From Candidatus Krumholzibacteriota bacterium (GTDB lineage: Bacteria; Krumholzibacteriota; Krumholzibacteriia; LZORAL124-64-63), in the NCBI GenBank assembly GCA_039714075.1, contig JBDLKA010000004.1, positions 3,087 through 67,086 on the forward strand: 64,000 nucleotides of DNA. The letters are read 5' to 3'. Position numbers and translations under genes: made by a program. Under the pieces are notes generated by a model. It was not told the origin of the DNA and made no database searches. It was given only the letters and a program-made list of their open reading frames with translations. How positions within the stretch are numbered: the first letter of the stretch is position 1; every line of letters starts with the position of its first letter. Shown in pieces: positions 6,406 through 49,297 of the stretch.

Positions 6406-6680
6406 GGTGGGATATTCCCTTTCTTGGATATAATTTCTCCTATATAACACCTGGATTATCTTATCATTAATGAAAGATTGATGTCAAATGGATGCCATAG
6501 TTCATCAATTCCTCAAAAAGCTCCACCTGTTGCCGTCCCCAGGCAATTTTCCTGGCCGAAACACAGGTCACAATTCCAATGCCACAACCAATTCCTTGAA
6601 ATCCCCTCCCCGAAATGGGAGAATGATTTTTCGAAATCAGACTCGCCCATTCTGCCCCATATCATCCAAGGAGAACCCTC

Positions 6681-8648
6681 ATGATCGTCGGCGTCATCGG
6701 TTCCGGCTCCATCGGCCCGGACCTGGCCTATGGTTTTGTCTCCGCCCTGGCCAGCCACCCGGACAGCCGTGTCCTCCTTCACGACATCAAACCCGACGCC
6801 TTGGAGGCCGGCCTGGCCCGCATCCAGGGCTACGTGAAAAAGGGTGTCGATCGTGGCAAGCTCAGTCCCAAGGTGGCCGCGGCCATCGGTGACAAACTGG
6901 TCACGACGCTGGACCTTCCCGACCTGGCCGATTGCGATTACGTGCTCGAGGCCGCCACCGAGGATCTGGGGATCAAGAAGATCATCCTGGGCAACCTGGA
7001 AAAAGTCGTGCGGCCCGACTGCCTGATCGGCTTCGCCACCAGCGGCCTGCCGCGCGCGGTGATCGCCGCGGACACGAAACACCCCGAGCGCTGCTTCGTG
7101 AACCACCCCTTCTTTCCCGCCTGGCGCGCCATGCCCATCGAAGTCGTGCTGTCGGACCACGCCGAGTACAGCGAGCGCATGCTGACGACCTTGAAGCATC
7201 TTGGCAAAGTGCCGGTGATCACCGCCGACGTGCCGTGCTTCGCCGCCGACGACATCTTCTGCAACTACTGCGCCGAGGCCGCGCGCATCCACGTCGAAGG
7301 CGTGGCGTCGGTGTGGCAGGTGGACAAGATCGTCAACGACGCCATCGGCGGCGGTGGTCCCTTCAACGTCATGGACCTGACCCGCGGCAACCTGCTGAAC
7401 GTCAAATGCCTGAAGCTGATGGAAGAAGCCGAGACGGGCAGCGAATGGTTCGCCCCGCCCGAGGTCTTCTCCACCCAGGCCAACAATCCCTGGCTCGACC
7501 ACAAGAACCCCGGTGACCCGTCGTACAGCCCCGAACTGGGCCAGCAGGTGCTGGACCGCATCCTGGCCGTGCTATTGGGACGAACCTATTTCGTGGCCGA
7601 CAACGATATCTGCGACCCGGCGGACCTGAACTGGCTGACGAGCAACGCCCTCGGTTTCAGCAAGGGGCTGCTGGATCTGGCGGCCGAACTGGGCGCCGAC
7701 CGCGTGCACGAGATCTGCACCACCTACGCGGCCGCCAACCCCGGTTTCGAGGTGCCCAAAAGCATTAGCGACCGGGTGCTGCTGGATTTCAAGCGCAACC
7801 TGCAGATCGAGAAGGATGACACCATCGCCACGGTGACCATCAAGCGTCCCGAGGTGTTGAACGCGCTGAACGACCAGACCATGAACGAGTTGAACGCCAC
7901 CTTTGACGAACTGGAAGCCGACAACACGGTGGCCGGCATCGTGGTCACCAGTTACGGCGGCTCGCTGGCGGGCGCCGACATCAACGAACTGGCCGCCCTG
8001 CCCACGCCCGAAGAGGCGGCCGACAAGTGCCGCCGCGGGCACAAGATTCTGCGCCGGATCGAGAACTGCGCCAAGCCGGTGGTCATCGCCGTGAACGGTC
8101 CGGTGCTGGGCGGCGGCGCTGAACTGTCCATGGCCTGCCACGCGCGGGTCGTGGGCCCGGGCCTGATGCTTGGTCAGCCCGAAGTGAACCTGGGGATCAT
8201 CCCGGGTTACGGCGGCACCCAGCGGCTGCCCCGCCTGATCGGGGTGGAAAAAGCCGCGGAAATGGTGCGGACCGCCAATACCATCGGCGCCAAGGACGCC
8301 TGCGCCCTGGGTTGGGCGGTCGGTGAGCCCGCGACCTCTCCAGTCGCGGCGGCCAAGGATGTGATCAAGGCCCACCTGGACGGGTCGGCGCCCATCAAGC
8401 GTCTGGACACCGGACCCATGAAAGTGCCTGCAACATTGCCGGCCGTCGACATCGGCCACCGTTCCCTGGCCATCGACCGCATCCTGACCGATACCCTGTT
8501 CGCCGGACTGAAAACCGACCTGGACAGCGGTCTGGAGCTCGAAGCCGTGGCCTTCGCCCGCTGCAAGGGGACCGTCGATTACGACATCGGCATGACCAAT
8601 TTCATCCAGAACGGACCCCGGGTGCCCGCGGTCTTCATGAACGAATAA
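6681..8648 (+). CDS. Fused 3-hydroxyacyl-CoA dehydrogenase (N-terminal) / enoyl-CoA hydratase (C-terminal) bifunctional protein, 655 aa
   Basis: An N-terminal Rossmann motif VIGSGSIGPDLA (3HCDH family) and a C-terminal crotonase fold (VIAVNGPVLGGGAELSMACHARV). The domain order is the reverse of FadB/FadJ and matches the archaeal Hbd-Crt fusion type. Confidence 0.9.
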   Translation: MIVGVIGSGSIGPDLAYGFVSALASHPDSRVLLHDIKPDALEAGLARIQGYVKKGVDRGKLSPKVAAAIGDKLVTTLDLPDLADCDYVLEAATEDLGIKKIILGNLEKVVRPDCLIGFATSGLPRAVIAADTKHPERCFVNHPFFPAWRAMPIEVVLSDHAEYSERMLTTLKHLGKVPVITADVPCFAADDIFCNYCAEAARIHVEGVASVWQVDKIVNDAIGGGGPFNVMDLTRGNLLNVKCLKLMEEAETGSEWFAPPEVFSTQANNPWLDHKNPGDPSYSPELGQQVLDRILAVLLGRTYFVADNDICDPADLNWLTSNALGFSKGLLDLAAELGADRVHEICTTYAAANPGFEVPKSISDRVLLDFKRNLQIEKDDTIATVTIKRPEVLNALNDQTMNELNATFDELEADNTVAGIVVTSYGGSLAGADINELAALPTPEEAADKCRRGHKILRRIENCAKPVVIAVNGPVLGGGAELSMACHARVVGPGLMLGQPEVNLGIIPGYGGTQRLPRLIGVEKAAEMVRTANTIGAKDACALGWAVGEPATSPVAAAKDVIKAHLDGSAPIKRLDTGPMKVPATLPAVDIGHRSLAIDRILTDTLFAGLKTDLDSGLELEAVAFARCKGTVDYDIGMTNFIQNGPRVPAVFMNE

Positions 8649-8661
8649 ACGGGAGACGAGC

Positions 8662-9945
8662 ATGACCACGAACAGCAAATCCATCGTCATCCTGGACGGC
8701 GCGCGCCGGACGCCGAGGGCCGACATCCTGATCAACAACCGCGAACCCGGTCTGTTCTCGCGCTTTGCGACCACCGCCCTGGGCGGCATGGCCATCAGGG
8801 CCACCCTGAAAAATACGCCGCTGGACAAGGGATTGATCGGCCACGTCATCATGGGGATGGCCTCGCACAGCCATCGCGACAGCATCTACGCGGCCCAGGG
8901 CATGGCCTGGCGCGGCGGCCTGGCCGACGACGTGCCCGCCCTGACGGTGGCCCGCATCTGCGGCAGCGGCGCCGAAGCGGTGGCCGTGGGCATGGAGCAT
9001 ATCCTGGCCGGTATCCGGCACGACCGTGACCGGCCGTTCCTGGTTGTCGGCGGCGGCGAGAGCATGCAGTACCCCTTCAGCGTTTACGGCATGCGCGGCC
9101 AGAAAGTGGGTACGGCGATCCAGAAGTACGGACCGCTGGACCCGCGTGGTCTGCCCCGGGGGTCCATGCTTCAGGATTCCCTGTTGCTGGGCCTTTATGA
9201 TCCGGGCGCCAGCCTGGCCATGGCCAATACCGCCGAAGAACTGGGGCGGCGTTACGAAATCACCCGCGAAGAGGCCGACGCCTTCGGCCATCGCTCGCAC
9301 ATGAATGCCAAGGCTGCCCGTGACGAAGGATTGTTCGCCGAGGAGATCGAGCCGGTCACCCTGCCCGGCAGCGGCGGCGAGGCCGACGTCGTGGTCGAAC
9401 ACGACACCCATATCATGGACAACATCAGCCTGGCCAAGATGAGCCGCTTGTACCCGGCCTTCGAGGCGGGCGGCATCATCACCGCAGGCAACGCCAGCGC
9501 CGTGGTCGACGGCGCGGCGGCCATGGTGCTGGGCCTCGAGGACGATGCCAAGGCACACGGCCTGAAACCTTTGGCCCGGGTGGTCGCTGTCGGCACGGCG
9601 GCCTGCGATCCGCGGATCATGGGCTGGGGTCCGGTTCCAGCGACGCGCATCGCCCTGGAAAAGGCCGGCCTGGCCGGAAGCGACATCGACCACGTCGAAT
9701 TGAACGAAGCCTTCGCGCCCCAGGCCCTGGCCTGCATACGGGACTTTGCCGACATGGGCATCGATCCGGAGAAGGTCAACCCGCAGGGCAACGCCATCGC
9801 GCTGGGCCATCCCCTGGGCGCGACCGGAGCCATCCTGACCCTGACCTGCGCCTACGCCCTGCGGCGCAAGGGCCAACGCTACGGTCTGGTCACGATGTGC
9901 ATCGGCGGGGGGCAGGGAAATTCGCTGGTCATCGAGTCCTTGTAG
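8662..9945 (+). CDS. Acetyl-CoA C-acyltransferase (thiolase)
   Basis: Thiolase signatures: VARICGSGAEAV (active Cys), NEAFAPQALAC, GHPLGATG, and CIGGGQG near the C-terminus. Lies 13 nt downstream of the dehydrogenase/hydratase gene. Confidence 0.92.
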   Translation: MTTNSKSIVILDGARRTPRADILINNREPGLFSRFATTALGGMAIRATLKNTPLDKGLIGHVIMGMASHSHRDSIYAAQGMAWRGGLADDVPALTVARICGSGAEAVAVGMEHILAGIRHDRDRPFLVVGGGESMQYPFSVYGMRGQKVGTAIQKYGPLDPRGLPRGSMLQDSLLLGLYDPGASLAMANTAEELGRRYEITREEADAFGHRSHMNAKAARDEGLFAEEIEPVTLPGSGGEADVVVEHDTHIMDNISLAKMSRLYPAFEAGGIITAGNASAVVDGAAAMVLGLEDDAKAHGLKPLARVVAVGTAACDPRIMGWGPVPATRIALEKAGLAGSDIDHVELNEAFAPQALACIRDFADMGIDPEKVNPQGNAIALGHPLGATGAILTLTCAYALRRKGQRYGLVTMCIGGGQGNSLVIESL

Positions 9946-12925: not shown

Positions 12926-14119
12926 ATGACAAAGGATTCTCCCGTGACCCCTTCCCCCCGCACCCAGATCGTCGACTGGGCCACCGAAATCTACGAAGAC
13001 CTGGATTTCACCGCGTCCCGGCAGTGGCTGGACGACCACCCGGGCAGCAAGGCCGCCGGGTTCCTGCCCGTCTACGCCCCCAAGGAGATCATCCATGCCG
13101 CGGGCATGCTGCCGGTGGGCATCCACGGCAACGGGGCCATCGAGATCATCCGCGGCGACGCCTACTACCAGAGCTATATCTGCCATCTGCCCCGGTCGGT
13201 GGTCGAATTCGCGGAATCCGGCCGCCTGGATTTCCTGTCGGCGGCCTTGTTTCCCTCGACCTGCGACGTGATCCGCAACCTGTCCGGCATGTGGCAGGTC
13301 ATGTTCCCGGAGATGTACGTGCGCTACCTCGACCTGCCCCAGGTGGCGGATCCGGAACTCGGCGCCAGGTTCTGGCAGCGGGAACTGAACGTGATCCGGG
13401 AGGAACTGGGCCGCGTGGCCGATGTGAACATCACCGATGACCGGCTGCGGGCGTCGGTCGCGGTGTACAACGAGGTGCGCGAGGTCATCGGCCAGTTATA
13501 TGGCCTGCGCAACAAGCAACCCTGGAAGGTGCCCACCGAAGAATTATACCTGCTGCTGCGGGCAGGGGAAGTCGTGGCGCCGGAAGTCTTCATGGAGAAG
13601 GCCCGCGCCTACCTGCAGGCCGCCGAAAACAGCGACGATCCCCTCAAGGACCGCACCCGGGTGATCATCGTGGGCTCGTTCTGCGAACAGCCGCCCCTCG
13701 GGCTGATCAAGACCATCGAACGCGCCGGCTGCTACATCGTCGACGACGATTTCCTGGCCGGTAACCGCTTCCTTACCAACGCCGTGCCCGTCGCAGGTGA
13801 TCCCGCGGAAAACCTGGCCACTACGTTCACCAGCAGCGCCGTCAAGACCTCGGTCCTGTACGAACCGGATCCCGACGGCAAGAAGAACCTGATGCAGCAG
13901 CGCGCCAAGGCCGCCGGCGCCGACGGCATCATTTTCTGCGCCGCCAGTTTCTGCGATCCCGCCCTGCTGGACAGGCCCATGCTGCGCGACGGGGCCGAAC
14001 AGGCCGGCATCCCCTGCATCGCCTTCAAGTTCGCCGAGAACTCGGGGCAGTTCCAGCAGTTCCGCGAGCAGGCGGGCACCTTCAGCGATTCGATCAAACT
14101 GTGGGGAGAGGCGTCATGA
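12926..14119 (+). CDS. Benzoyl-CoA reductase / 2-hydroxyacyl-CoA dehydratase family subunit, BcrC/BadD/HgdB-like (397 aa)
   Basis: First gene of a 4-gene cluster with sizes 397/437/426/290 aa, matching BcrC/B/A/D. C-terminal Cys-containing motifs. The stop overlaps the next start (ATGA). An alternative GTG start lies 18 nt downstream, after AAGGA. Confidence 0.8.
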   Translation: MTKDSPVTPSPRTQIVDWATEIYEDLDFTASRQWLDDHPGSKAAGFLPVYAPKEIIHAAGMLPVGIHGNGAIEIIRGDAYYQSYICHLPRSVVEFAESGRLDFLSAALFPSTCDVIRNLSGMWQVMFPEMYVRYLDLPQVADPELGARFWQRELNVIREELGRVADVNITDDRLRASVAVYNEVREVIGQLYGLRNKQPWKVPTEELYLLLRAGEVVAPEVFMEKARAYLQAAENSDDPLKDRTRVIIVGSFCEQPPLGLIKTIERAGCYIVDDDFLAGNRFLTNAVPVAGDPAENLATTFTSSAVKTSVLYEPDPDGKKNLMQQRAKAAGADGIIFCAASFCDPALLDRPMLRDGAEQAGIPCIAFKFAENSGQFQQFREQAGTFSDSIKLWGEAS

Positions 14120-15426
14120 GCGACCAGAAAACAGACATCCGCCAGGCCCAGAAGGACGATTCGATGATCATCCAGAAAGAGATGATCGCCGAGCACTACA
14201 AGCGGCTCGAGCGGGCGCCCGAAACCAAGGAACCGGTGGTCTACACCTTCGTGCCCGGCAACCTGACCGAGCTCATCCGCTCGTTCGGCTGCCTGCCCGT
14301 GCTGCCGGAGATCAACGCCCTGCAGTCGGGCATGCGGGGAAAAAGCCGCGAATATATCGCCGAAGCCGAAAAGCGCGGGCACTCCGAGGACGTCTGCACC
14401 TACGTCAAGTGCGACATCGGCATGGCCATGGCGGGCAACATCGGCCCCACCGGCACCAAGCTGCCCAAGCCCGACCTGCTGCTGCTCTCGTACACCGGCT
14501 GCTACACCTTCATGAAATGGTTCGAACTGCTGCGCGAGGAATACGATTGCCCCTGTGTTTTCCTGCACGTGCCCTACCAGGGCGAAGGCAACATCGAACC
14601 CGAGCACCGGGACTACATGATCAAGCAGATCAAGGAAGAGGTCATTCCCGCGCTGGAGAAAATATCCGGCCGCAAGTACGACGAGGATGCCCTGAAGGAG
14701 CGACTGCGGTTGAGCGTGCAGGCCGAGGACGATCTGGTCTGGGTGCTGCAGTCCGCCATGAAAAAACCCTCGCCCATCGACGCCTACTTCGGCGCCGTGT
14801 ATTACGTGGGTCCGATCTTCAGCGCCTTCCGCGGCACCGAAGAAGGCGTCAATTATTACCAGGCGCTGCGCCGCGAAGTGCAGGGACGCCTGGATGCCGG
14901 GCTGGGTCCGGTCGCTCCCAAGGGTCCCATGGCCGAGGAGAAATACCGCCTGGTGGTCGAAGGCCCGCCCAACTGGACGCACTTCCGCGAGTTCTGGCAG
15001 ATGTTCGCCGACGAGGGCGCGGTGGTGGTGGCCTCGACCTACAGCAAGGTCGGCGGCACCTACGATTTCGGTTTCCGGCACAACCCGGATGACCCCCTGG
15101 GCACCATGGGCGACTACTGCGCCGGCTGCTACACCAACCACAACCTGCCCGGCCGCATCGACATGCTGTGCCAGTACCTGAAGGATTACGAGGCTGACGG
15201 GTTTTTGATCAACTCCGTCAAGTCGTGCAACTCGTTCAGCGCCGGCCAGTTGATGATCCTGCGCGAGGTCGAGAAACGCACCGGCCTGCCGGGCGGTTTC
15301 ATCGAATCGGACCTTGTTGATCCGCGCTACTTCTCGGCCGCCAACATCAAGAATCGCCTGGAGAGTTACCTGCAGATGGTCGAAGCCCGCCGCGCCGGCG
15401 CTTCGCAGAAAGGCCTGTCCGCATGA
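14116..15426 (+). CDS. Benzoyl-CoA reductase / 2-hydroxyacyl-CoA dehydratase family subunit, BcrB/BadE/HgdA-like (437 aa)
   Basis: The ORF runs 14101..15426. An ATG at 14116 overlaps the upstream stop. Paralogous to 2328..3572. Conserved Cys-rich stretches ([33 protein letters not shown]). 4-nt overlap with the next gene. Confidence 0.8.
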
Positions 15427-16703
15427 GCATCGCCTGTGTTGTCGGGACGGACCTCGGTTCGACCACCACCAAGTCGGTCATCCTCGATGGTGACGGAAAC
15501 ATTCTCGGGCGCGGCATCACCAACAGCCGCTCCGATTACGATCGCGCGGCCAAGGTCTCGCGCAGCGAAGCCTTCATCACCGCGCGCTTCAACCTGCTCC
15601 AGCGCGAGGTTGAACAGGCCGCCGGACCCGAGGTGCTTCAGCGTCTACTGGACGCCTTCCGGCTCGAGCAGACCCTCGCCCAGCTCGACCGGTTGCACCA
15701 ACTTGTGTCCGGCGCCCTGGCCTTCGGCGTGCCCGGTGACCTGAGCGTCGCGGCCACCGAAGCCGTGAAAACCATCGTCACCCGTATCCAGCAAAGCGAA
15801 CTGAAACGTTTCGAGGATCCTAATCCGCCCAAGCGCTCGGACTTCTTCCGCGACACCGTGGGTTCGGCCTGGAGCACCATCAGCGAAGAGATCGGCGATC
15901 CGGCGGGCGTTAGCTTCGACATGCTGCTCGGCCTGTACGACAAGTGCATCATCCAGGTCGAGAACGAACCGCTGGCCCTGGGCTTCGGCGATCATATCGA
16001 AAACGCCCTGGAGCGCATCGGCGGTTCCGAAGCCGTCAAGACCGGGGTGCGCCACGCCGTCGAGGCCGAATTCGACGTGCGCGGGGAAGTGGGCACCGGT
16101 TACGGCCGGCAGCGCCTGCCCTTCCCCAAGGAGATGATCCGTTCGGAAATCCTCTGCCACGGCCTGGGCGCTTCGATCATGTTCGGCGGCACCCGCACCG
16201 TGCTGGACATCGGCGGCCAGGACACCAAGGCCATTCAGGTCGACGAGAACGGCATCGTGACCAGCTTCCAGATGAACGACCGGTGCGCCGCCGGTTGCGG
16301 ACGGTACCTGGGCTACATCGCCGACGAGATGAACCTCGGGCTGCACGAACTGGGACCTTTGGCCCAGGAAAGCACCCGCACGGTGAAGATCAACTCCACC
16401 TGCACCGTTTTCGCCGGGGCCGAACTGCGCGAGCGCCTGTCCCTGGGCGAAAAACGCGAGGACATCCTGGCCGGCCTGCACCGCGCGATCATGCTGCGGG
16501 CCATGAGCCTGCTGGCCCGCTCGGGCGGCGTCGAGGACGAGTTCACCTTCACCGGCGGCGTGGCCAACAATCCGGCCGCGGTGTCGGCTCTGCGCGAACT
16601 GGTGACCGAAAACTACGGGGACAAGGTTCTGAACATTTCCCCGGACAGCATCTACACCGGCGCCCTGGGCGGCGCCATTTTCGCCCACAGGAGCGCGAAC
16701 TGA
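15423..16703 (+). CDS. BcrA/BadF-like ATPase subunit (long BadF/BadG/BcrA/BcrD-family ATPase with an insertion, 426 aa)
   Basis: N-terminal [17 protein letters not shown] and a second half carrying CAAGCGRYL and TGGVANN. Its length, insertion and position match the alpha subunit of class-I benzoyl-CoA reductases. Confidence 0.85.
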
Positions 16704-17575
16704 TGAGTACCGAAAACACTACCAAAACAGCAACGGTCACCGCCGGCCTGGACGTCGGCTCGGGTGCGGTCAAGGCCGTGGTCATGGGGTTCGAAGACGG
16801 CCGCGAAGAACTGCTGTCCAAGGTCAGCACCCGGATCCGCCGCCGGGACATCAATGATGTCGTTGACGAGGTCTTCGGCCAGGCGGTCGCCGAAGCCGGC
16901 GTCGATGGTCTGAACTACGTGGCCACCACCGGTGAAGGCGAGGACATTCCCTTCGCCACGGGCCACTTCTACGGCATGACCACCCATGCGCGCGGCGCGC
17001 TTTTTCTCGATCCGCGCGCCAACGCCGTGCTGGACGCCGGCGCCCTGCACGCCCGGGCCATGGCCATGGACAACCGGGGCAAGGTCCTGAACTACAAGAT
17101 GACCAGTCAGTGCGCGTCCGGCTCCGGACAGTTCCTGGAGAACATCGCCCGCTATCTGGGGGTCTCCCAGGCCGAGATCGGCGACCTTTCCCTGGCCGCG
17201 GACAACCCGGAAAAGTGCAGCGGCATCTGCGCCGTGCTGGCCGAGACCGACGTGATCAACATGGTCTCGCGCGGCATCAGCACCGAGAATATCCTGCGCG
17301 GAATTCATGAAAGCATGTCCGGGCGCTTCGTGCGCCTGCTGCGCTCGCTGGACTACGGCGAAGTGATTTTCGTCAGTGGCGGCCTGGCCGGTGATGTGGG
17401 TCTGGTCAAGTCGTTGGCTGACGAATTCGCCGGGCTGAAAAGCCTGAAGGGGCCCGTGCCCGAGATCGCCACCCACCCGGACAGTATTTTCGCCGGGGCG
17501 ATCGGGGCGGCCATCTGGGGGAATTTCCGGCATGGCAAGCTGGGGCTGGAAGGGTTTGCCTGGCAGGCGGCCTGA
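16703..17575 (+). CDS. BcrD/BadG-like ATPase subunit (short BadF/BadG/BcrA/BcrD-family ATPase, 290 aa)
   Basis: The ATG at 16703 overlaps the upstream stop (TGATGA). The track lists it only within the over-extended ORF 15944..17575. GLDVGSGAVKAVV and CASGSGQFLE motifs. Confidence 0.8.
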   Translation: MSTENTTKTATVTAGLDVGSGAVKAVVMGFEDGREELLSKVSTRIRRRDINDVVDEVFGQAVAEAGVDGLNYVATTGEGEDIPFATGHFYGMTTHARGALFLDPRANAVLDAGALHARAMAMDNRGKVLNYKMTSQCASGSGQFLENIARYLGVSQAEIGDLSLAADNPEKCSGICAVLAETDVINMVSRGISTENILRGIHESMSGRFVRLLRSLDYGEVIFVSGGLAGDVGLVKSLADEFAGLKSLKGPVPEIATHPDSIFAGAIGAAIWGNFRHGKLGLEGFAWQAA

Positions 17576-17686: not shown

Positions 17687-17977
17687 ATGAAAAATAGAAT
17701 CCTCAGTCCATGGTTGTTGGCCGTGATGATCGCCACGCTTGCCGCGGGAACCGCTCTCGCTGACATCCCGGATGGCGATGAGCACCCCTGGGACAGCGAG
17801 TCCACAGACCCTGTTCTCGAGGGGGACGAGCATCCCTGGGACAGCGAGTCCACCGATCCAGGTATCGAGGGAGACGAGGGTCCCTGGGACGCCGATTCTG
17901 CCGGAACGCTGGATGCGGCCTCGGCGGAAGCGCTGTTGTTTGCGGAGCAGTTAGCCGAGTTGGCACAGTTGCCGTAG
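17687..17977 (+). CDS. Small secreted acidic tandem-repeat protein (96 aa; signal peptide plus GDEHPWDSESTDP repeats)
   Basis: Strong RBS AGGGAGGGA. Signal peptide MKNRILSPWLLAVMIATLAAGTALA. Two near-identical 13-aa repeats plus a degenerate third (39-nt DNA tandem repeat). Followed by an intrinsic terminator. Confidence 0.6.
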   Translation: MKNRILSPWLLAVMIATLAAGTALADIPDGDEHPWDSESTDPVLEGDEHPWDSESTDPGIEGDEGPWDADSAGTLDAASAEALLFAEQLAELAQLP

Positions 17978-18071: not shown

Positions 18072-20762
18072 CTACTTCTCGAGCGTGAGCAGATAGATGT
18101 CGCCGTCGTCCGTGTCCTGGGTGTAGACGATTCGCGTGCCGTCGTGCGACCAACCGCCGTTGTGGACGTGCCACCGGCCCTGGCCGTTTGTAATCCGTTC
18201 GAGGTCACCTACAGGTTTGGGCAAGCCGGACCCGGAGGCCGGGACCTCCAGTTCGAGCACGAACAGTCCCTGGTCGAAGTGGCTGGCCGATTTCACCAGG
18301 GCGAGGGAACCGCCGTCCGGCGCCAGGATCATTTCCGTGTGGGGTCCGGTAAAGAGCAGGACTTCCTCACCTGTCTGAAGATTGGCGGCCCGCAGTTCCA
18401 TCTTGTCGCCGGCCATGGTGCTATACACGATGCGATTGCGGTCCAGATACCAGTCGAAACGCAGGACCCCGGGAAATACGGACTTCGCCTTGGTGTCGCC
18501 GTGACGATCTGTCATCCACAGGGATGTTCCCCCGATATCAGGCAGTACGTATCCGATCGACTTGCCGTCCGGCGTCCAGCGGATGCTGAGGCTTACCGCC
18601 CAGACAACGCTGGGAATTGATATGTCCCGGATCGAGAGGTGCTCGGGAGGCCCGCTTCCGTCGGCTTTGGCGATCCAGATATCCGTGGGCCCGTCCCGGT
18701 TGGAGAGGTAGGCAATCTCCTCGCCGTCCGGTGACCAGGCCGGGAGTATGTCCATGGACGGATGTTTGGACAGGTTCAGTTCCTCGTGGGTCTCAAGGTC
18801 CACGATCCAGATTTCCTCGTTTCCGGTCCGGGTCGACTGGTAAGCGATACGATCTCCCCCGGGAGCATATCGTCCGACGAAGTTGTCGGCGGTCCAGGAG
18901 GTCAGCTGTTCGGACTCGCCGGTCGAGACGTCCACCGTGTACAGGTCCGTCTGATGGCTCCACCGCGTGTAGACGACAAGTCCGTGGGAAGAAACACTGG
19001 GATACCAGTCCTTTCCGCCGCCGAAGGTAAGCTGGCTCAACTCCCCCGAGTCCACGTGGATACCCCAGATATTCTCCATCCCACTTCTGTTGGACCCGAA
19101 GATGACGTACTGATCTCCGAGCAGAAACGAGGGGTCCATGTTTGCGAATTCGTCCGCCAGGAGTTCGTGTTCCTCCCCACCCGGAACCGATATCAGGAAC
19201 AATCTCGATGTTCCCGCGTGGGATCGTGTAAACACAATCCACTTGCCGTCGAAAGAGAAGCTCCCACTCAGGTCACGAGCGCCTGTCGGGGGAAAGGTGA
19301 CCTGCTTTTCGTCCCTGGTCTCGAGGTCCACCTTAAAAATCGCCACATCACCGTTATCCAAAATCCGGGAATACAGCAGACTCTTGTCCCCCGGAGCCCA
19401 AGGCATGGATCCGAGCAACCGCACCGCGTCCCAAAAATCGTTCAGGTAGGGAACCCGGGTCTCGACCAGTTTGGTCGATTTGCCTCCCAGGGGCGAGATC
19501 GTGAAGATATCACAATAAATCCCATCCCCCCCCAGATAGGCGATCTGGTTCCCGTCGCGGGACCAGCGCGGCAGATCCTCGTCTCCGGGATCATCGGTCA
19601 GACGCAACTTTTGTCCGCCAAGGCGCGATTGCATGTACAGGTCCATCGTCCCGTGTTCAGTGTGGCCGTAGGCGATGAATTCCGAGTTGGGCGACAGATT
19701 TCCCGAGAATTCAGGGCCTCGGGCAAAGGTGATGCGATCTGTTCCACCCGGAGAAAGCTTCCCGCCCGATTCCCAGGGCTGCATGACCAAGAGTGAAAGG
19801 GCGGCGGCGATGACCACCACAACGGCAACCAACCACGCCGTGCGAGCCGAACCCGGCTTTTGATCGCGTTGTTTCTGTTGGGCAGGGGCGGTGAATCCGG
19901 AATCGCGTTTGAGCATCTTGAGGTCGGCCCGGATTCCGGCCGCGCTCTGATAGCGCAGTTCGGGATCCTTCTCGAGGGCCTTGTTGACGATGCGCTGCAA
20001 CTCGGCCGGAACCTTCCGGTTGAGCTTCACCGGCGCCGTCGGGGCCCGATTCAGGATCGCATCGAACATGGCCGCGGACGTGTTCCCCGCGAAGGCGCGC
20101 CGCGCCGTGATCATCTCGTACAGAACCACTCCCAAAGAGAAAATGTCGGTCCGGTGGTCGAGGCCCTTTCCCAGCGCCTGCTCCGGCGACATGTACGACA
20201 CGGTGCCAACCACCGCCCCCGGATTGGTCATGTCCAAGGCGGTCATGGTTGCGCCATCGAGTCCCGGCTCCTGTTCCGTGTCGGGAGCGAGCTTGGCCAG
20301 CCCGAAATCCAGCACCTTGGCCTGGCCCCGGTCGGTAACGAAGATGTTGGCCGTCTTGATGTCCCGATGAATGATCCCCTTGGCGTGAGCGGCGTCCAGC
20401 GCATCGGCGATCTGGAGGGTGAGATCGACCGCTGACTCGATCGCCAGGGGTTGGCCGCCGATGTGTTGCTGAAGGGCCTGCCCCTCCAGCAGTTCCATGA
20501 CGATGAACCGCCTGCCTTCCCACTCGCCGATGTCGTAAATGGAGCAGATGTGGGGGTGGTTCATCGCCGAAGCGGCGCGGGCCTCGCGAATGTGACGATC
20601 GACATTCTGTGGTTTCGTGGCCACCTCGTCGGGAACGAATTTCATGGCGACGTTGCGCCCAAGACGCGTGTCCTGGGCCTTCCACACCACACCCATCCCG
20701 CCTTCGCCGATCTTCTCGATCAGGCGGTAGTGCTGTATGGTTTGACCAGACTGGATATTCAC
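18072..20762 (-). CDS. Eukaryotic-like Ser/Thr protein kinase with a single TM and a periplasmic TolB-like tandem beta-propeller (WD40/PD40 repeats), 896 aa
   Basis: GTG start directly abutting the upstream stop (TAGGTG). Hanks kinase motifs [33 protein letters not shown] after ~residue 300. C-terminal PD40-like repeats. Confidence 0.9.
19880..20762. repeat. Direct repeat copy A (5' kinase-domain coding region of the tandem Ser/Thr kinase genes)
   Basis: Matches 22181..23063 at a constant offset of 2301 nt. The spurious ORFs 20451.., 20609.. and 19981..20370 reappear near-identically at 22752.., 22910.. and 22282..22671. The 5'-most ~470 nt (20292..20762) appear identical, and identity decays towards the 3' side. 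Confidence 0.8.
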
Positions 20763-23093
20763 CTACTCGTCCCCCTTGTGTTCCGCCAAACCCTTCAATC
20801 CCGCCATCTCAAGCCCCTCCATCAGGTGGTCGGTCAAAGCGACCGTCATGGCGTGACGTTCAATCAATTCCCCGCGAATCTCACCGACAGGCCGAGCCCA
20901 CAGCGTGAGCATCTCGTCCAGCGCTGGCCCAGCATCCCCGGAACGGCCGAGTTGCCCGTAGGTTGCGGCAAGATAAAGCGGGCCGCGAAAGTCACCGCCA
21001 CCCAAATCAACATCCCTCAATTCAGTCAGGGCCTGTTCGTGTCGCCCGTGTCGATAGTGGTCCAGGAAAAAGGGCGTCCTTATCCAGCCAGGGGGATTCG
21101 GATCAAGTTCGATCGCTCTGCGCACCATCGGCAGGCTGTGTTCGAAGTCCTCCAACTGGGCAAGGAAGAACCCGAACATGGCCAACCACATGGTGTCGTT
21201 CGGGTTCAGGTCGATCGTCCGGTAAGCTTCGATCTTGGCGCGTTCATAATCCCCGCTGGTGAAATGGGTGAGAGCCATGGCTCCGTGGGCCACATGGTTC
21301 CCCGTGTCGAGCCGTACCGCCTTTTCGGCAAGCTCCAGCGCCCGTTCGAGAGCATCATATTCGTCCGAACGCTCGTTCCAGCGATGGTGGGTTTCCTCGG
21401 CATATATGTAGGCCAGCCAGGCCAGGCCGTCAGCGTAGTCGGAGTCGTCTCCGATCACACGTTCCAGGCAATTACGCGCCGCCAGATGATTTTCCGGTGT
21501 GTGTACATGCAGGTATTCGTACGTCCGCAGGACGCAATCATAACTGTCCAGACTCGCCGGAGGTTTACGTCTGGAACCGGGCAGTCCCGCCCTGGTCAGG
21601 GCTCCGTACGATCCGGCGATCGCGCTGACGACCTGTTGCGTCAACTCGTCCTGCAGCTCGAAAAGATTGGCTACCGTCAGATCACGCTCGTAGTTCGTTC
21701 CCCATATCAACCGCCTGTCGCCGGAATCGGAGAGCTGGACATTGACCTTGACCTGATTCCCTGCTTTGCGGACGCTTCCCTTCAACAGATAACGATTTAC
21801 AGGCAGGGTACCGGCCCGGCCAAGGTCTTCATCGCGATCCTCGTAGCTTTCCGTCGAACTGTGGGCGATCACGGTCAGCCTGCTGTAGCGAGAGAGCTCC
21901 GTGACGATATCCACGGTCAGTCCTTCGCTGAAGTACTTCTGATCCGTATCCCCACTGGCATTGGTGAAGGGCAGAATGTCGATCGTCGGACCTCTCGAAG
22001 AGGTCTGTTGGACACCTGCGTCAATCCCCTTTTCTGGAGCAGTGTCTGCCGGGGTTGCGTCTCGCCCGGACAGCCCCTTCAGCAGAATCACCGCCACCAC
22101 CGCGGTCAGCAACACCCCGGCCACTCCCCACAGGCCCACTCGGAGCCGGTCCGGGCCGGCAGCAACCGGTGGCGGGGTCACGGCGGTCATGCCTGCGGAC
22201 GAGTCCCGCTGCATTCGCTTCAGATCGCTCCGCAGTTCGGCTGTGCTCTGGTAGCGCAGCTCGGGATCCTTCTCGAGAGCCTTGTTGACGATGCGCTGCA
22301 ACTCGGGCGGGACCTCCCGGTTGAGCTCCACCGGCGCCGTCGGCGCCCGGTTTAGGATAGCGTCGAACATGGCCGCGGACGTGTTCCCCGCGAAGGGGCG
22401 CCGCGCCGTGACCATCTCGTACAGAACCACGCCCAAAGAGAAAATGTCGGTCCGGTTGTCGAGGTCCTTACCCAAGGCCTGCTCCGGTGACATGTACGAC
22501 ACCGTGCCCACCACCGCCCCCGGAGTCGTCATGTCGAGCGCGGTCATGGTGGCATCGTCGAGTCCCGGCTCCGGCGTTGCTCCGGACGCGAGCTTGGCCA
22601 GCCCGAAATCCAGCACCTTGGCCTGGCCCCGGTCGGTAACGAAGATATTGGCCGTCTTGATGTCCCGATGAATGATCCCCTTGGCGTGAGCGGCGTCCAG
22701 CGCATCGGCGATCTGGAGGGTGAGATCGACCGCTGACTCGATCGCCAGGGGTTGGCCGCCGATGTGTTGCTGAAGGGCCTGCCCCTCCAGCAGTTCCATG
22801 ACGATGAACCGCCTGCCTTCCCACTCGCCGATGTCGTAAATGGAGCAGATGTGGGGGTGGTTCATCGCCGAAGCGGCGCGGGCCTCGCGAATGTGACGAT
22901 CGACATTCTGTGGTTTCGTGGCCACCTCGTCGGGAACGAATTTCATGGCGACGTTGCGCCCAAGACGCGTGTCCTGGGCCTTCCACACCACACCCATCCC
23001 GCCTTCGCCGATCTTCTCGATCAGGCGGTAGTGCTGTATGGTTTGACCAGACTGGATGGACACGAATTTTCTCCCCCTGGTCGTCCCGACCAT
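20763..23093 (-). CDS. Eukaryotic-like Ser/Thr protein kinase with a single TM and a periplasmic TolB-N-like plus TPR-like sensor domain, 776 aa (or 766 aa from the GTG at 23063)
   Basis: The kinase domain is identical to the downstream paralogue over its first ~157 aa. The periplasmic part shows an [17 protein letters not shown] motif followed by TPR-like helices. A GGGGGAG RBS precedes the GTG at 23063. Confidence 0.9.
22181..23063. repeat. Direct repeat copy B (5' kinase-domain coding region of the tandem Ser/Thr kinase genes)
   Basis: See copy A. Includes the RBS region, and divergence begins immediately upstream of the start codons. Confidence 0.8.
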
Positions 23094-23272
23094 CCCAGAG
23101 CATGATATTCCGCTCGAAAGTGGTATTTCGAGCTCGATTCATATCATATCATACTAATATGTATTTGTTAAGAAAGGGGCGCTATGCACTCCGACTGGCC
23201 GATTTGAGACATTTTTGATATTAATTGGTGGGTTCCAGGCGTTACCGCTCATTCCTGAATTCTGGAGACCCT

Positions 23273-25972
23273 ATGCAATCCGGTCAAACCCTTGCGCACT
23301 TCACCCTCGTGGAAAAGATCGGCTCCGGAGGGATGGGTGAAGTCTACCGCGCCACCGACGCCAAGCTGGGCCGGGACGTGGCCCTCAAGATCCTTCCCTC
23401 CGAATTGAGCGGCGACCCCGAGCGCGAAACCCGCTTTCATCGGGAAGCCCGCGCCCTGGCCAGCCTTCAGCATCCCAACGTGGCCTCGGTGTACGGTTTT
23501 GAAGAAGTGGACGGGATCCGCTTTCTGGTCATGGAACTGATTTCGGGCTCGGAACTAACCGTACGGATGAAAGAAGGTCCCATCCCGGTCGAGGAAACCC
23601 TGGACATCGCCCGCCAGATTGCCGCGGGCCTGGAGGCCGCCCACGAAAACGGCATCGTTCATCGTGACCTCAAACCGGCCAACATCATGGAAACCGAAGA
23701 CGGCGAAGTGAAAATCCTGGATTTCGGATTGGCCCAGGCCTGGTTCGGCGAGGACGACACCCAGCATGAGTCCGCCACGTCCCCGACCATGACCGCGGCC
23801 ATGACCCAGGCCGGCGCCATCCTGGGTACGGCGGCCTACATGAGCCCCGAGCAGGCCAGGGGCGCGGGTGTCGATCGGCGCACCGACATCTGGGCTTTCG
23901 GAGCGATCCTTTTTGAAATGCTGACCGGCAAGCAGCTCTTCAAGGGCGAAACCATCAGCGACACCCTGGCGGCCGTTCTCCGCAAGGAACCCGCCTGGGA
24001 TTCCCTGCCCGTAGACGAAGCTCCCGAGCTTTGCCGGTTGATCGAACGTTGCCTGGAGCGCAATCCCAAGCAGCGTCTGCGCGACATCGGCGAGGCCCGC
24101 ATCTTTCTGCAGGACGGCGGGGCCAGCATATCCAATTTTAGTTTTTCCCAGCTGGGCATGGACGCGGCGCCGGCGGAGTCCGCGCGCGCGAAAACCCCGG
24201 TTCCCCTGTTGGCGATTCTGGCTCTGGTATGCTTGTCGGTTGGCACGGTCCTGGGATGGAAGATTGTCGCCCAACCGAAGCCCGCTCCCCTGCTGCACAC
24301 CATGATCCCCGCGCCCAAGGATGCTGATTTCGATCTCAGGAGCCCGGCCCCGGGTCCGGCCGCAATCTCTCCTGACGGGACCAAGATGGCCTTTACGGCC
24401 GTGGATGAATCGGGAACCTCCCAGCTGCATCTGCGACACCTGGACAAGGGCGAGTCGGTCGTTCTGTCGGGCACCGTGGGCTCGGCCTACCCCTTCTGGT
24501 CACCCGACAGCGAGTTCATCGGGTTCTTCGAGCCCAATGCGGGGAAACTCAAGAAGGTGGCGGCGGCCGGCGGGCCCCCCGTCACCTTGTGCACCGCGCC
24601 CAACGGCAAAGGGGGATCCTGGAACAGCCGGGGAGAAATCATCTTTGCTCCCAATCACAACGGCGGGATCTTCAAGGTCCCGGACATCGGGGGGGCGCCT
24701 GTCCAATTGACGACCCTGGACCCGGACCATGATTCCCACCGGCACCCCCGCTTCCTTCCTGGGGGCACAAATTTTATTTTCACCGGTCGCGCCCTTAGCG
24801 GAAACATCAACAGCATATTCCTGGCCTCAACGGACACGGCCATTGCACCTAGAATAATTTCCGAATCGCAGACCAATGGGGACTTTGTCAACGGCAACCT
24901 GCTGACTGTCCATGAGGGCGTTTTGATGGCCACTCCGTTTACACCGGACCAGGAGAAGGTGACCGCGGGTGCGACCCCGTTGGTGGAAAACATCCTGAAT
25001 ATTCAGGGAGCCGCGGTATCTGTTTTCAGCCCCTCACCGACGGGCATGCTTGTCTTTCAGACGGGAGTCTCCATCAATGTGGGACAAATCATTTCCTGGG
25101 TGGAAATCGAAAAGGGGGTCGTGGAACCTCTAGGTGAACCCGGTCAGGTTTTTCATCCCTTTATTTCCCCGGACGGGAGTCAGGCTCTGCTTGAAGTGCG
25201 CAATGCGTCCAATGAAGGTACGGACCTGTGGCTTTTGGATCTGGCCACGGGTTTGCGGACACGGTTCACGTTTGCCGCGGGCGACGAAAAACGCCCCTGC
25301 TGGTCGCGTACAGGAAAAGACGTGTTCTACGAATCAGTTGAAAACAACTCCTTCCGGATCATGCAGCAACCGGTGGAGGGACAGGGCGGCGCCGCCATCA
25401 TTCTTGAATCCGACCGGGAAATCGCGCCTTCCAGCGTGGATCCCGAAGACAAGTTCCTATTGGTCGATTTCGAACGGGAGGACGGCAATTTTGAACTCCG
25501 CCGGATCACCCTGGAGCCCGGTCTGGACGAAATGGTCACCCTGGCCACTGCGCCTGACGCCAATCTGGGCGGTGGTGAGTATTCGCCGGACGGTCGCTGG
25601 ATCGCCTATCACACCGAAAGCGCTTCCGGATGGGATATCTTCGTGATCGCGGCCGAAGGTGGAGCGCGCAAGTGGCAGGTGACAACCGACGGTGCTGTAT
25701 ATCCCAAATGGGCAACAGGCGGAACGGAATTGTGGGTCAGCACATTCAGCGGAGATCTGCGCGTGTATTCCGTGGACGGTACCGGGCAGACCTTCCGCGT
25801 GGGGAACTTTATCCAGACCCCGATTAACATCGGCCCGGGCCCGAGTGGCAGTTTCTATGACCTGCACCCCGACGGCTTGCGGGTTCTCCAGACCGGAATG
25901 GATCCGGCTTTCCGTTCCGAAGTGTCCCATCTTCACCTGGTCACGGATTGGAAACGGGGGCTTGCCCAATAG
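23273..25972 (+). CDS. Eukaryotic-like Ser/Thr protein kinase with a single TM and a periplasmic TolB-like beta-propeller, ~900 aa
   Basis: The ORF runs 23225..25972 from a TTG. The likely ATG start is at 23273 (MQSGQTLAHF, aligning with the paralogue starts). Motifs GSGGMGEVYRA, HRDLKPANIM, DFGLAQ. Divergent from the tandem kinase pair, about 50% identical in the kinase domain. Confidence 0.9.
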   Translation: MQSGQTLAHFTLVEKIGSGGMGEVYRATDAKLGRDVALKILPSELSGDPERETRFHREARALASLQHPNVASVYGFEEVDGIRFLVMELISGSELTVRMKEGPIPVEETLDIARQIAAGLEAAHENGIVHRDLKPANIMETEDGEVKILDFGLAQAWFGEDDTQHESATSPTMTAAMTQAGAILGTAAYMSPEQARGAGVDRRTDIWAFGAILFEMLTGKQLFKGETISDTLAAVLRKEPAWDSLPVDEAPELCRLIERCLERNPKQRLRDIGEARIFLQDGGASISNFSFSQLGMDAAPAESARAKTPVPLLAILALVCLSVGTVLGWKIVAQPKPAPLLHTMIPAPKDADFDLRSPAPGPAAISPDGTKMAFTAVDESGTSQLHLRHLDKGESVVLSGTVGSAYPFWSPDSEFIGFFEPNAGKLKKVAAAGGPPVTLCTAPNGKGGSWNSRGEIIFAPNHNGGIFKVPDIGGAPVQLTTLDPDHDSHRHPRFLPGGTNFIFTGRALSGNINSIFLASTDTAIAPRIISESQTNGDFVNGNLLTVHEGVLMATPFTPDQEKVTAGATPLVENILNIQGAAVSVFSPSPTGMLVFQTGVSINVGQIISWVEIEKGVVEPLGEPGQVFHPFISPDGSQALLEVRNASNEGTDLWLLDLATGLRTRFTFAAGDEKRPCWSRTGKDVFYESVENNSFRIMQQPVEGQGGAAIILESDREIAPSSVDPEDKFLLVDFEREDGNFELRRITLEPGLDEMVTLATAPDANLGGGEYSPDGRWIAYHTESASGWDIFVIAAEGGARKWQVTTDGAVYPKWATGGTELWVSTFSGDLRVYSVDGTGQTFRVGNFIQTPINIGPGPSGSFYDLHPDGLRVLQTGMDPAFRSEVSHLHLVTDWKRGLAQ

Positions 25973-33873: not shown

Positions 33874-35778
33874 CTATTTGGCCAGCAGCATCCGACGCGT
33901 TTCCACTTCGTCCCCAGCATGCAAACGATAGAAATACACCCCCGTAGCCACCGTCCTCCCTGCCTGATCCCTTCCCATCCAGACCTTTTCGTGCTGCCCC
34001 GCTGCCTCGCTGCCGGAGTACAAAGTCCGCACCAGCCGTCCAGCCAGATCAAACACCTGAAGATCCACCTGGCCCGCGCTTTCCAGCTCGTACTTGATGG
34101 TGGTCGATGGGTTGAAGGGGTTGGGCACGTTCTGATGCAGCACCACTCCAGCCAGGACACCCGTACCCGGAACCGGGCTCAACTCGGGCTGGAAAACCTT
34201 CCCCACGAATTCCGGCCGGTCGATAAAGGGATTCCGGTTGCCCTGGATGTCATAGACCGCCTCGTTGCGGTCGACCTCCTTGGCACTGACCGGATCGTCG
34301 GCGTTCCATTCCAGCAACAGGGCCTCGGCCCAGGGCAGCAGTGTCGCGCCGGAAGTCATGTCGCTGCCGGGCCAGCCCGCGTCTTCCCCGAAATACCGCG
34401 TGGTCATGTAGAAGTAGGCGCGGGCGAAATCGCCTTTGTACTCGTCGATGGGTTCGAAGACGGTCCCGCTATAACCCGGATAGGCGCAGGGTCCCAACCG
34501 GCTCCCGTTGAGCGAGGTCCAGGTGGGCGAATTCACCTCGCCGAAAGGAAAGCTGCCCCGCTTGTTGTTCACCTCGTTGTCCGTGGGGACGACCATGAAC
34601 ACGTCGGAATACATGGGAGAGGTCGCGCCGTACCAGCTGCTGGGCCAGGAATGTTCGCGGTTGTAACCGGTTCCCTCGGTGCCGGCGGTTCCCCCCTGGT
34701 CGACGCCGAAAGTGTATTCGTAAGGCGGCGTCCCCCCGGGCACGTCCGAGTACATGTCCCAGACCTTGCCGTTGGGCTTGTCGTCCGTGGTGTAGAAGGC
34801 CGACCATAGGCCGTCGTAACTGATGACCGTATGATTATCGATGATGTTGTGCAGGGCCGCCCGCAGGGGCTCGCCGATCAGACCCTCGGCGGAAGTGTAA
34901 TAACCCGGCGGGATGTTCGCCCCGGGAATGGTATAGGAGTCCTCGCCGGAGACCGTTTCGGCCGGAATGTCGTTGGCCGCGGTGACACTGAAATAGATAA
35001 CGGTTCCCGCGACCTGGCCGGGGATCGGGGTGGCCGTCTGGAAGGTGTCGCCACCGGTGTTGGTCATGGTGATGGGATTGATCAGCGCGCCGGATATCGT
35101 ACCCCAGTTCAGGGTCACGGCCGTGATGTTGGCGACCGCATCGGTGACCGCCGCCTGCACGTCAACCGTCTCGCTTTCCACCGGAGATGCAGGCACCGTG
35201 GTGATGGATCCGATGACCGGACCATCCCCGGCCACCGCGCTGTGCGTTCCCGGCGTGGCTTCGCTGGGATAATCGACGGGAGTGGCCGTCCACTCGGCGG
35301 CGTTATAGGCCGGGCTGGGCGAGGTGACATCCCCGTTCCGCACCATGGTCATGTTCTCGAACGCGACACCGGGCACCACGATGTCGTCGACGACAGTACC
35401 CAAGTCGTTTTTCAACCGGGCGCCGTCACCGATCTTCCCGTTCCAGGTGGAATTGCTGGTCGACCAGGCCTCGGCCGGAAAATCGACCGGGAAGACGTCG
35501 ACCGTGGTCTGGTCTCCCGCCACCAGGGCCTGTCCCGGAGCAATCGTTCCCGACAGGTTCCAGGTAAAGATCTCGACGGAGTTTCCCATCGCCACGATCT
35601 GCCAACCGGTCAGGTCCTCGGCCGTCGCGCCGGAGTTGTAGATCTCGATGTACCGGTCGGTCAGGTAATTGACGCGGGGGTCGCAGAGTTCGGACACCAG
35701 GACGTCGGCCTGCGCGGCCGGAGCCAGGGCGGAAAAAACAAGCAGAACCAAGGCGAGTTGGGCGATGACCATTTTCAT
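33874..35778 (-). CDS. Secreted extracellular nuclease: lamin-tail domain, endonuclease I (EndA/Vvn family) domain and a T9SS type-A C-terminal sorting domain, 634 aa
   Basis: Signal peptide. LTD (VLVSELCDPRVNYLTDRYIEIYNSGATAEDLTGWQIV). Endonuclease_1 motifs REHSWPSSW and GNRNPFIDRPE. C-terminus NPFNPSTTIKYEL..GVYFYRLHAGDEVETRRMLLAK. Confidence 0.85.
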   Translation of the reverse strand: MKMVIAQLALVLLVFSALAPAAQADVLVSELCDPRVNYLTDRYIEIYNSGATAEDLTGWQIVAMGNSVEIFTWNLSGTIAPGQALVAGDQTTVDVFPVDFPAEAWSTSNSTWNGKIGDGARLKNDLGTVVDDIVVPGVAFENMTMVRNGDVTSPSPAYNAAEWTATPVDYPSEATPGTHSAVAGDGPVIGSITTVPASPVESETVDVQAAVTDAVANITAVTLNWGTISGALINPITMTNTGGDTFQTATPIPGQVAGTVIYFSVTAANDIPAETVSGEDSYTIPGANIPPGYYTSAEGLIGEPLRAALHNIIDNHTVISYDGLWSAFYTTDDKPNGKVWDMYSDVPGGTPPYEYTFGVDQGGTAGTEGTGYNREHSWPSSWYGATSPMYSDVFMVVPTDNEVNNKRGSFPFGEVNSPTWTSLNGSRLGPCAYPGYSGTVFEPIDEYKGDFARAYFYMTTRYFGEDAGWPGSDMTSGATLLPWAEALLLEWNADDPVSAKEVDRNEAVYDIQGNRNPFIDRPEFVGKVFQPELSPVPGTGVLAGVVLHQNVPNPFNPSTTIKYELESAGQVDLQVFDLAGRLVRTLYSGSEAAGQHEKVWMGRDQAGRTVATGVYFYRLHAGDEVETRRMLLAK

Positions 35779-44620: not shown

Positions 44621-44856
44621 GGTCAACCCCCGAACAATTTGAATGGAATATGAAGCAGAACCCGATGTTGCCAAACCGAAGGGTGATTATACCTCATATC
44701 CTACCGAAAGTAAATGAGTTGGAAGGGAAAACCCGATTGATATTTCCGGCTGGAACTCGAGACATGGACTTGCCGGCAGACCCGGTTTATAGTTAAATTG
44801 GATCTTTTTACTCTTGGTTGTCCGGTTTTCAGAACACCTTCCCAAGGAGACGAACA

Positions 44857-49104: not shown

Positions 49105-49297
49105 CTTGGTCTCCCCTTGTCCTTGCTGTGGATGCTCCCAACCATGCCTGCTCTCATCAAACACCATCCGGAGTCGGATTAAGTTGCAGGGGATTGAGGA
49201 TTTGGCAGGGAAGTGTTTGTGGGGGGGGTTTCTTCCGGCCGCCAAACCCCCGCGGGCTTGGCGGCCGGATGGAATGAAAATCAAAAAGAAACGCGGA

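Follow-up and report, generated by a model that had tools for sequence, protein, structure and literature searches.

Probable domain-limited gene conversion between two tandem receptor-type Ser/Thr kinase genes of a Candidatus Krumholzibacteriota bacterium

Introduction

How do two adjacent genes whose sensor modules are unrelated come to carry nearly the same kinase sequence? The question is raised by two minus-strand genes, called A and B here, that encode putative receptor-type Ser/Thr kinases and lie on contig JBDLKA010000004.1 (assembly GCA_039714075.1) of a Candidatus Krumholzibacteriota bacterium. The stretch of this contig that was analyzed, positions 3,087 to 67,086 of its forward strand (64,000 nucleotides, nt), is referred to below as the window, and all coordinates given without a locus name are window coordinates. 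A preliminary description of this DNA had proposed that tandem paralogs here undergo, or recently underwent, gene conversion, and had cautioned that a collapsed repeat in the assembly would look much the same. Analysis of the repeat and of related loci from other assemblies indicates that the likely explanation is recurrent interlocus gene conversion (concerted evolution) limited to one domain, and at least two rounds of copying would fit the data.

The kinase-coding direct repeat is a mosaic

The kinase-coding parts of A and B form a direct repeat with a constant offset of 2301 nt, as had been described; alignment and BLASTN both recover it, the latter as 842 nt of 94% identity (19,917–20,756 vs 22,218–23,057). 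The parts in the repeat are ∼810 nt each and lie 2.3 kb apart. Similarity begins sharply at codon 3. All three positions of codon 2 differ (AAT in A, TCC in B) and the regions upstream of the two genes are alike only in a GGGGGA Shine–Dalgarno sequence at a 1 nt offset, so the codons near the ribosome binding site (RBS) are not identical as had been thought. From codon 3, 469 of 470 nt are identical, in agreement with the ∼470 identical nt first reported, and the proteins are identical over residues 3–159; the earlier figure of ∼157 identical residues at the very N-terminus stands for that interval and fails at codon 2. The lone mismatch in the tract (20,346 G vs 22,647 A on the plus strand) is a synonymous AAC/AAT difference in codon 139. 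Over codons 3–158 the two genes share 467 of 468 nt, and the number of synonymous substitutions per synonymous site (dS; Nei–Gojobori) is 0.009.

Just past the DFG motif, at codon 158/159, identity falls in a single step. It is lowest directly after the step (67% at the nt level in codons 159–168), where a 6-codon hypervariable patch of the activation loop lies (codons 159–164; PDTEQ vs SGATP), is 83% in codons 169–200 and 92–93% in codons 201–272, and collapses abruptly to 54% in codons 273–290, the two genes being unalignable from codon 273 on. Codons 159–272 as a whole are identical at 300 of 342 nt (88%), with a dS of 0.37. The gradual decay of identity along the kinase domain that had been reported is in fact this three-state mosaic, a single step followed by a block that appears to have been homogenized earlier. 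The aligned parts differ at 43 of 810 sites, and under a hypergeometric distribution at most one of these differences would fall within the first 468 sites with a probability of 1e-15. The tract of 470 nt is the longest stretch with no more than one mismatch, a length that none of 100,000 permutations reached (maximum 287), and the maximum chi-square breakpoint falls at codon 159 (value 57.8).

Paralogs compared with orthologs

Comparison with orthologous loci in related metagenome-assembled genomes (MAGs), which the preliminary description had suggested, found the same B-then-A tandem in the loci L001 and L158/L159. L001 is a 3.1 kb contig from a MAG labeled Gemmatimonadota; it starts at B codon 157 and has, in order, the B sensor (77% amino acid identity to that of the window), a spacer of ∼100 nt and an A-type kinase (92% amino acid identity). 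L158 and L159 (99.96% mutual identity), from two Joint Genome Institute (JGI) samples, contain B in full length (81% amino acid identity), an 88 nt spacer and A. In these tandem loci the B sensors are 77–78% identical in amino acid sequence to that of the window, and the juxtamembrane region plus sensor of A is 85–91% identical in nt sequence. A fourth locus, L161, has the closest B ortholog (sensor 87% identical in amino acids), and its A is reduced to a remnant downstream. Since L001 and L158/L159 carry the same arrangement and L161 a remnant of it, the tandem is evidently ancestral to this small clade and not an assembly chimera. The duplication is likewise evidently older than the identity of the tract, as L001 and L158/L159 share the tandem with orthologous sensors. 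In the L161 remnant (L161:2599–2860) the A leader with its RBS region is joined directly to the last ∼55 codons of A, which end in DIYLLKIAE and a stop; this near-complete deletion of A did not go through the kinase repeat.

For the comparisons that follow, w, L1 and 158 stand for the window, L001 and L158, with the suffix A or B for the gene type. There is no insertion or deletion in the first ∼288 codons of the compared sequences, which makes a site-wise comparison possible. The sensors, and the codons from ∼273 on, group by orthology, A with A and B with B; in codons 273–290, nt identity is 85–91% between A genes, 69–85% between B genes and ∼50% for A vs B. Before codon ∼273, hardly any site of the kinase domain is characteristic of either the A type or the B type. 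In its N-terminal part (codons 3–158) wA and wB are 100% identical in nt sequence (dS 0.009), and the orthologous pairs have dS values of 0.42–0.77; among them are wA–L1A (89% identity, dS 0.42), wA–158A (83%, dS 0.66) and wB–158B (85%, dS 0.62). The paralogs 158A and 158B are 84% identical here (dS 0.60), and their whole kinase domains are 83% identical over 813 nt with the same limits of homology as in the window (codon ∼3 to codon ∼272). In the C-terminal part (codons 159–272) all pairings of the four copies (two from the window, two from L001) give 86–91% identity (wA–L1A 91%, L1A–L1B 90%, wA–wB 88%, wB–L1B 86%), and dS lies in the range 0.32–0.49 whether a pair is paralogous or orthologous; the 0.37 of wA–wB is about the same as the orthologous values of 0.32–0.43. 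The duplication predates the split of these lineages, yet the paralogs are as close as the orthologs or closer at synonymous sites; sequence has therefore been copied between them. A neighbor-joining kinase-domain tree of a larger set unites wA, wB and L1A (bootstrap support 100%), and also wA and wB (96%). In neighbor-joining trees of the small set the support labels were unstable after rerooting, so the identity and dS matrices were relied on instead. The idea of recent or ongoing conversion between tandem paralogs is upheld by the orthologous loci, by the orthology of the sensors and by kinase domains that group by genome.

Other relatives show similar relationships. In L002, from a Thermoanaerobaculia MAG (L002:233–4915), a B ortholog abuts a second kinase gene at 2551/2552; their kinase domains, with 86% identity over 854 nt, are grouped in the tree, and their C-terminal modules differ. 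The C-terminal module of this second kinase is a third kind, of a TolB_N-like/TPR type, and no obvious transmembrane segment lies between it and the kinase domain. L079 also has a kinase pair (81% identity over 870 nt). A-type and B-type genes are separate in L160, L162–L165, L093, L009 and L006. The solo B-type gene of L160 and the solo A-type gene of L162 have different sensors, and the N-terminal parts of their kinases are each other's closest relatives (90% nt identity); this likeness may reflect conversion between unlinked copies. An insertion of 4 residues that follows the catalytic loop is seen in genes of both the A and the B type. When the kinase domain by itself was used as a protein query, all matches were short or partial proteins with identities of at most 82%, and none pointed to further copies of the identical module joined to other sensors.

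A third receptor kinase gene, C (23,225–25,972, plus strand), lies in divergent orientation to B and encodes a kinase domain, a transmembrane segment and PD40 propellers in 915 amino acids; a similar divergent arrangement of C-type and B-type genes is present in L007. C was considered as a partner in the repeat and rejected: its kinase domain is ∼44% identical in amino acid sequence to those of A and B, and it lies outside the repeat.

A model for the exchange

If gene conversion is the explanation, earlier conversions, at about the time when the window and L001 lineages split, would have homogenized the remaining kinase domain up to codon 272, and a very recent event in the window lineage would have copied codons 3–158 from one gene into the other. 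The exchange would have been a non-reciprocal homologous recombination, presumably of the RecA type. The 5' end of the tract lies where homology between A and B begins, at codon 3, and its 3' end lies at the hypervariable patch of codons 159–164, the most divergent part inside the kinase domain; strand exchange or heteroduplex extension would be expected to stop at such heterology. No other part of A and B offers as long an unbroken stretch of homology as the tract does. A QTIQHY motif (codons 8–13) that the window tract has in common with L1A and 158A hints at copying from A to B. No inverted repeats or recombinase-type switching were found in the 16–26 kb region of the window.

Alternative explanations

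Several points weigh against gene conversion. In the kinase-domain trees, bootstrap values are low for the deep branches. The N-terminal part of L1B is missing from its contig, which starts at codon 157, and the N-terminal test uses L1A, L158, L160, L161 and L162 instead. L160 and L162 come from the same JGI sample series and are not assignable to one genome. The diagnostic sites for a donor are mixed between A and B and do not separate donor from recipient. Finally, the tract contains a 410 nt exact repeat, which is longer than typical k-mer sizes and whose interior, beyond about one read length from either end, cannot be phased by short reads, and bubble collapsing could turn copies that are ∼98–99% identical into an apparent 100%.

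The last of these points is the core of the strongest rival explanation, an assembly artifact in which the two tracts really differ, or only one exists, and a collapsed node was traversed twice or two genomes were joined. The exact A and B proteins occur on one contig only in the collection, in which this population is thus represented by a single assembly, and look-ups of exact-sequence contigs for A, B (with both start variants) and P0121 returned no further contig. The L001 contig moreover begins at B codon 157, as a repeat-induced break would look; however, this is ∼10 nt before the first difference between L1A and L1B, too few for a k-mer overlap, and so the coincidence is suggestive only. 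Against an artifact, the gene arrangement, the leader at the junction and both sensor modules recur in assemblies of other samples (L001 and L158/L159, with the remnant in L161). Copies that are ∼85–90% identical share no long k-mers and are not collapsible, and only copies of ∼98% identity or more could be merged; since the ∼88% identical parts share no long k-mers, merging during assembly cannot create the identity step. One phased mismatch also persists 59 nt inside the tract, and the older conversion signal in the C-terminal part is independent of the identical tract. An artifact is for these reasons unlikely. The worry about a collapsed repeat is mostly allayed for the gene arrangement by the independent assemblies and persists in part for the exact identity inside the tract, where the true value could be somewhat below 100% if the assembly was made from short reads.

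Even less probable is a recent duplication or replacement of the module by illegitimate recombination, in which the 5' kinase segment was newly placed in front of an existing sensor gene. The very sharp 5' boundary at codon 3, with unrelated sequence upstream, is what such an event would leave, but relatives such as L158 already have homologous full-length kinase domains in both genes, the tract ends within continuous homology as is expected of homologous exchange, and B has a B-like codon 2 (TCC) and RBS, which means that the recipient's original 5' end was left in place. A constraint on codons, or very strong purifying selection, acting on the N-lobe without recombination, to which the strong conservation of the kinase domain protein sequence across the family might point, can practically be dismissed, because dS rises from 0.009 in the tract to 0.37 in the block that follows, and in the same codons the paralogs have a dS of 0.009 vs 0.42–0.77 for orthologs.

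Kinase domains, topology and sensors

Both proteins match the Pfam family Pkinase far above its gathering cut-off of 31.7 (A 166.2 bits, B 170.9 bits) and have in common the motifs GEGGMG at residue 19, VAMK at 38, HRD at 132, DFG at 152 and SPE at 192; they are predicted Hanks-type Ser/Thr kinases with intact catalytic motifs. Of the proteins with solved structures, the mycobacterial PknA (E 2e-53) and PknB (E 4e-51) match them best in sequence. Each has a single hydrophobic stretch, at residues 309–327 (Kyte–Doolittle means of 2.85 and 2.5, no other segment exceeding 1.6), and with the transmembrane segment called from this hydropathy both have the predicted topology of receptors, with an N-terminal cytoplasmic kinase, one transmembrane helix and an extracytoplasmic sensor.

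The two sensors are unrelated to each other, as the preliminary description had noted of the C-terminal halves and as Pfam and tblastn agree. That of A matches PD40 with 91.1 bits (cut-off 20.9) in five stretches, the score ranging over scans from 83 to 91 bits, and has precomputed matches to Tricorn_N, Tricorn_2nd and DPPIV_N. It is a predicted PD40/tricorn-like beta-propeller module, and its 566 residues together with the tricorn-type Pfam matches suggest that there are two propellers in tandem. The B sensor has a fold of two subdomains, one alpha/beta and one TPR-like helical, that matches the periplasmic domain of Escherichia coli CadC (PDB 3ly7); at 13% sequence identity, the likeness to CadC is one of fold resemblance only. 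A Pfam scan of the B sensor gave only weak TPR matches, below the level of membership in a sequence family, and TolB_N (PF04052) is a precomputed match for longer relatives of B only. L005:170–3604 (protein P0123) and relatives of ∼1130–1230 amino acids form a B-type sub-family that has two consecutive CadC-like/TPR modules after one kinase domain.

Gene starts, the A/B junction and expression

The two genes abut exactly as was first described: the TAG stop codon of B (20,765–20,763) is followed without a gap by the GTG start codon of A (20,762–20,760). Their products have consecutive accessions from one Candidatus Krumholzibacteriota MAG contig of 89,781 nt (Table 1). B had been taken to start at an ATG at 23,093. 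Its start is most probably the GTG at 23,063, because an RBS (GGGGGAG) lies 7 nt upstream of this codon, the NCBI product has 766 amino acids, and the orthologs of B have an ATG at exactly the matching codon.

Table 1 Positions of the kinase genes A and B and of their features in the window
Feature	Coordinates	Strand	Remarks
Kinase A gene	18072..20762	-	896 amino acids; GTG start at 20762; NCBI MEN8005718.1, exact match
Kinase B gene	20763..23063	-	766 amino acids; probable GTG start at 23063; NCBI MEN8005719.1, 100% identical
Putative recent conversion tract, copy in A	20287..20756	-	Codon 3 to second base of codon 159; N-lobe, catalytic loop, DFG
Putative recent conversion tract, copy in B	22588..23057	-	469/470 nt identical to the copy in A
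Putative older homogenized block in A	19947..20286	-	Codons 159–272; activation segment and C-lobe; hypervariable patch at 5' edge
Putative older homogenized block in B	22248..22587	-	Codons 159–272
Predicted sensor module of A (propellers)	18075..19772	-	tblastn, Pfam; orthologous to A-type sensors of L158, L091, L093 and others
Predicted sensor module of B (CadC-like)	20766..22073	-	tblastn, structure; orthologous to L001, L158, L160, L161 and many others
Shine–Dalgarno GGGGGA for A	20770..20775	-	Inside the last codons of B
Shine–Dalgarno GGGGGA for B	23072..23077	-	Upstream of GTG 23063
Promoter-like site upstream of B	23143..23171	-	Sigma-70-like, TTAACA-17-TG-TATGAT; sequence scan

The sequence AAGGGGGA precedes the GTG of A within the last codons of B, and the position of the A Shine–Dalgarno sequence inside the end of B implies translational coupling. 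Upstream of B, the TTAACA and TATGAT/GGATATGAT elements of the promoter-like site are kept in the orthologs of L158 and L161. With this site, the overlap of the Shine–Dalgarno sequence with B and the abutment of the genes, B and A look like a translationally coupled two-gene operon and are probably co-transcribed.

Alignment of the junction with those of L001 and L158 shows that the TAG–GTG abutment in the window is derived, and that a deletion of ∼88 nt relative to these loci took out the original stop codon of B and the spacer. The deletion is flanked by CGGAG-like microhomology (20,763–20,800 compared with L001:1830–1940 and L158:3600–3710), and the C-terminal end of B is now EHKGDE, encoded by the former leader of A.

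Possible consequences of a common kinase module

A and B differ in the activation-loop insert, ∼12% of the C-lobe residues, the juxtamembrane region, the transmembrane helix and the sensor. They would have the same ATP-binding lobe, catalytic loop and N-lobe surface and different inputs. With the same catalytic core and N-lobe, they probably share substrates, and two extracytoplasmic signals are probably fed into those same substrates. The preliminary description had seen in gene conversion a way of attaching one signaling output to different sensors; conversion keeps an already shared module homogeneous, and how the different sensors became attached is left unexplained by it.

Kinases of the PknB type form back-to-back dimers through the N-lobe, and from their sequences A and B may cross-dimerize. 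It is conceivable, though rather doubtful, that homogenization has been kept by selection for identical N-lobes in A/B heterodimers rather than being a neutral by-product of proximity. If it has, such heterodimers would join the CadC-like and the propeller inputs into one phosphorylation output, and conversion of kinase modules would be general and long-lasting in these sediment bacteria, whose kinases would cluster by genome and not by sensor type.

The locus also has practical implications. In kinase-rich phyla, trees of kinase domains may lead to a misreading of orthology, and where identical repeats of 0.4–0.5 kb lie within MAG contigs, checks at the level of reads are advisable. Such repeat pairs are, in addition, substrates for deletion or amplification.

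Other features of the window

Convergent with A lies an open reading frame of 96 amino acids (17,687–17,977, plus strand) with a signal peptide-like N-terminus and no Pfam match; within it, a 48 nt tandem repeat (17,771–17,866) encodes acidic (D/E)GDEHPWDSESTDP units. Farther upstream in window coordinates, plus-strand genes at 6681–9945 and 12,926–17,575 form a benzoyl-CoA-reductase/2-hydroxyacyl-CoA-dehydratase-like cluster with two HGD-D subunits and two BcrAD_BadFG ATPases, adjoined by beta-oxidation genes (a 3HCDH/ECH fusion and a thiolase). A potential for the degradation of aromatic compounds is described for Krumholzibacteriota in one report (PMC10936416).

Six large predicted proteins, all encoded on the minus strand (4156–6450, 33,874–35,778, 38,886–41,885, 43,193–44,674, 45,937–49,284 and 61,066–63,990), have a C-terminal FlgD_ig domain; their other domains include LVIVD repeats, FG-GAP, Laminin_G_3, Endonuclease_1 and others. 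A neighbor of these genes (49,298–51,376) ends in a Por_Secre_tail sorting domain. FlgD_ig may be a shared C-terminal tag for export or anchoring.

Comparison with known systems

The process considered here is already known, and the locus is no new molecular system. Its value is that of a clean, datable natural case of domain-limited concerted evolution in bacteria, in which one signaling module is kept identical between two receptors with unrelated input modules. The architecture of the proteins themselves, kinase–transmembrane segment–sensor, is that of the PknB/PknA receptor kinases of Actinobacteria and Firmicutes. The sensors of the latter are PASTA domains, whereas that of B is CadC-like and that of A consists of PD40 propellers, and the activation loops of A and B have an insert of ∼14 residues relative to PknA. 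In CadC the corresponding domain sits on a ToxR-like DNA-binding domain, but in B it sits on a kinase.

Among eukaryotes, clusters of plant receptor-like kinase and resistance genes evolve by unequal crossing-over and gene conversion. In arrays of plant receptor kinases, as in A and B, the conserved parts recombine and modules are reshuffled or homogenized, and the ligand-binding parts differ. Unlike the present pair, plant clusters are eukaryotic and recombine in meiosis, and their variable parts are homologous leucine-rich repeats, not unrelated folds.

In bacteria, gene conversion between paralogs is well established; it has been put at ∼1e-5 per operon pair per generation for the rrn operons and at 2e-8 for tufA/tufB (PMC8022953), and a survey of concerted evolution in prokaryotes lists 26 long-lasting cases (PMC6053082). 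Hanks kinases are not among the 26 genes of that survey, in whose text the word "kinase" occurs 0 times, and targeted literature searches found no published case of gene conversion for bacterial Hanks-type (eukaryotic-like) Ser/Thr kinases. A and B resemble rrn and tufA/tufB in that paralogs are closer than orthologs, synonymous sites are homogenized, tracts are discrete and exchange is recurrent (PMC8022953; PMC6053082). They differ from these cases in that only one domain of multidomain genes is homogenized, the fused sensors are unrelated, and the copies are adjacent direct repeats. A further parallel, as presented in the survey, is the mtrA-1/mtrA-2 pair of methanogens, which likewise lies in tandem, has one copy that is fused and domain-shuffled, and has a common part that is highly similar within genomes, but which belongs to another protein family and another domain of life (PMC6053082).

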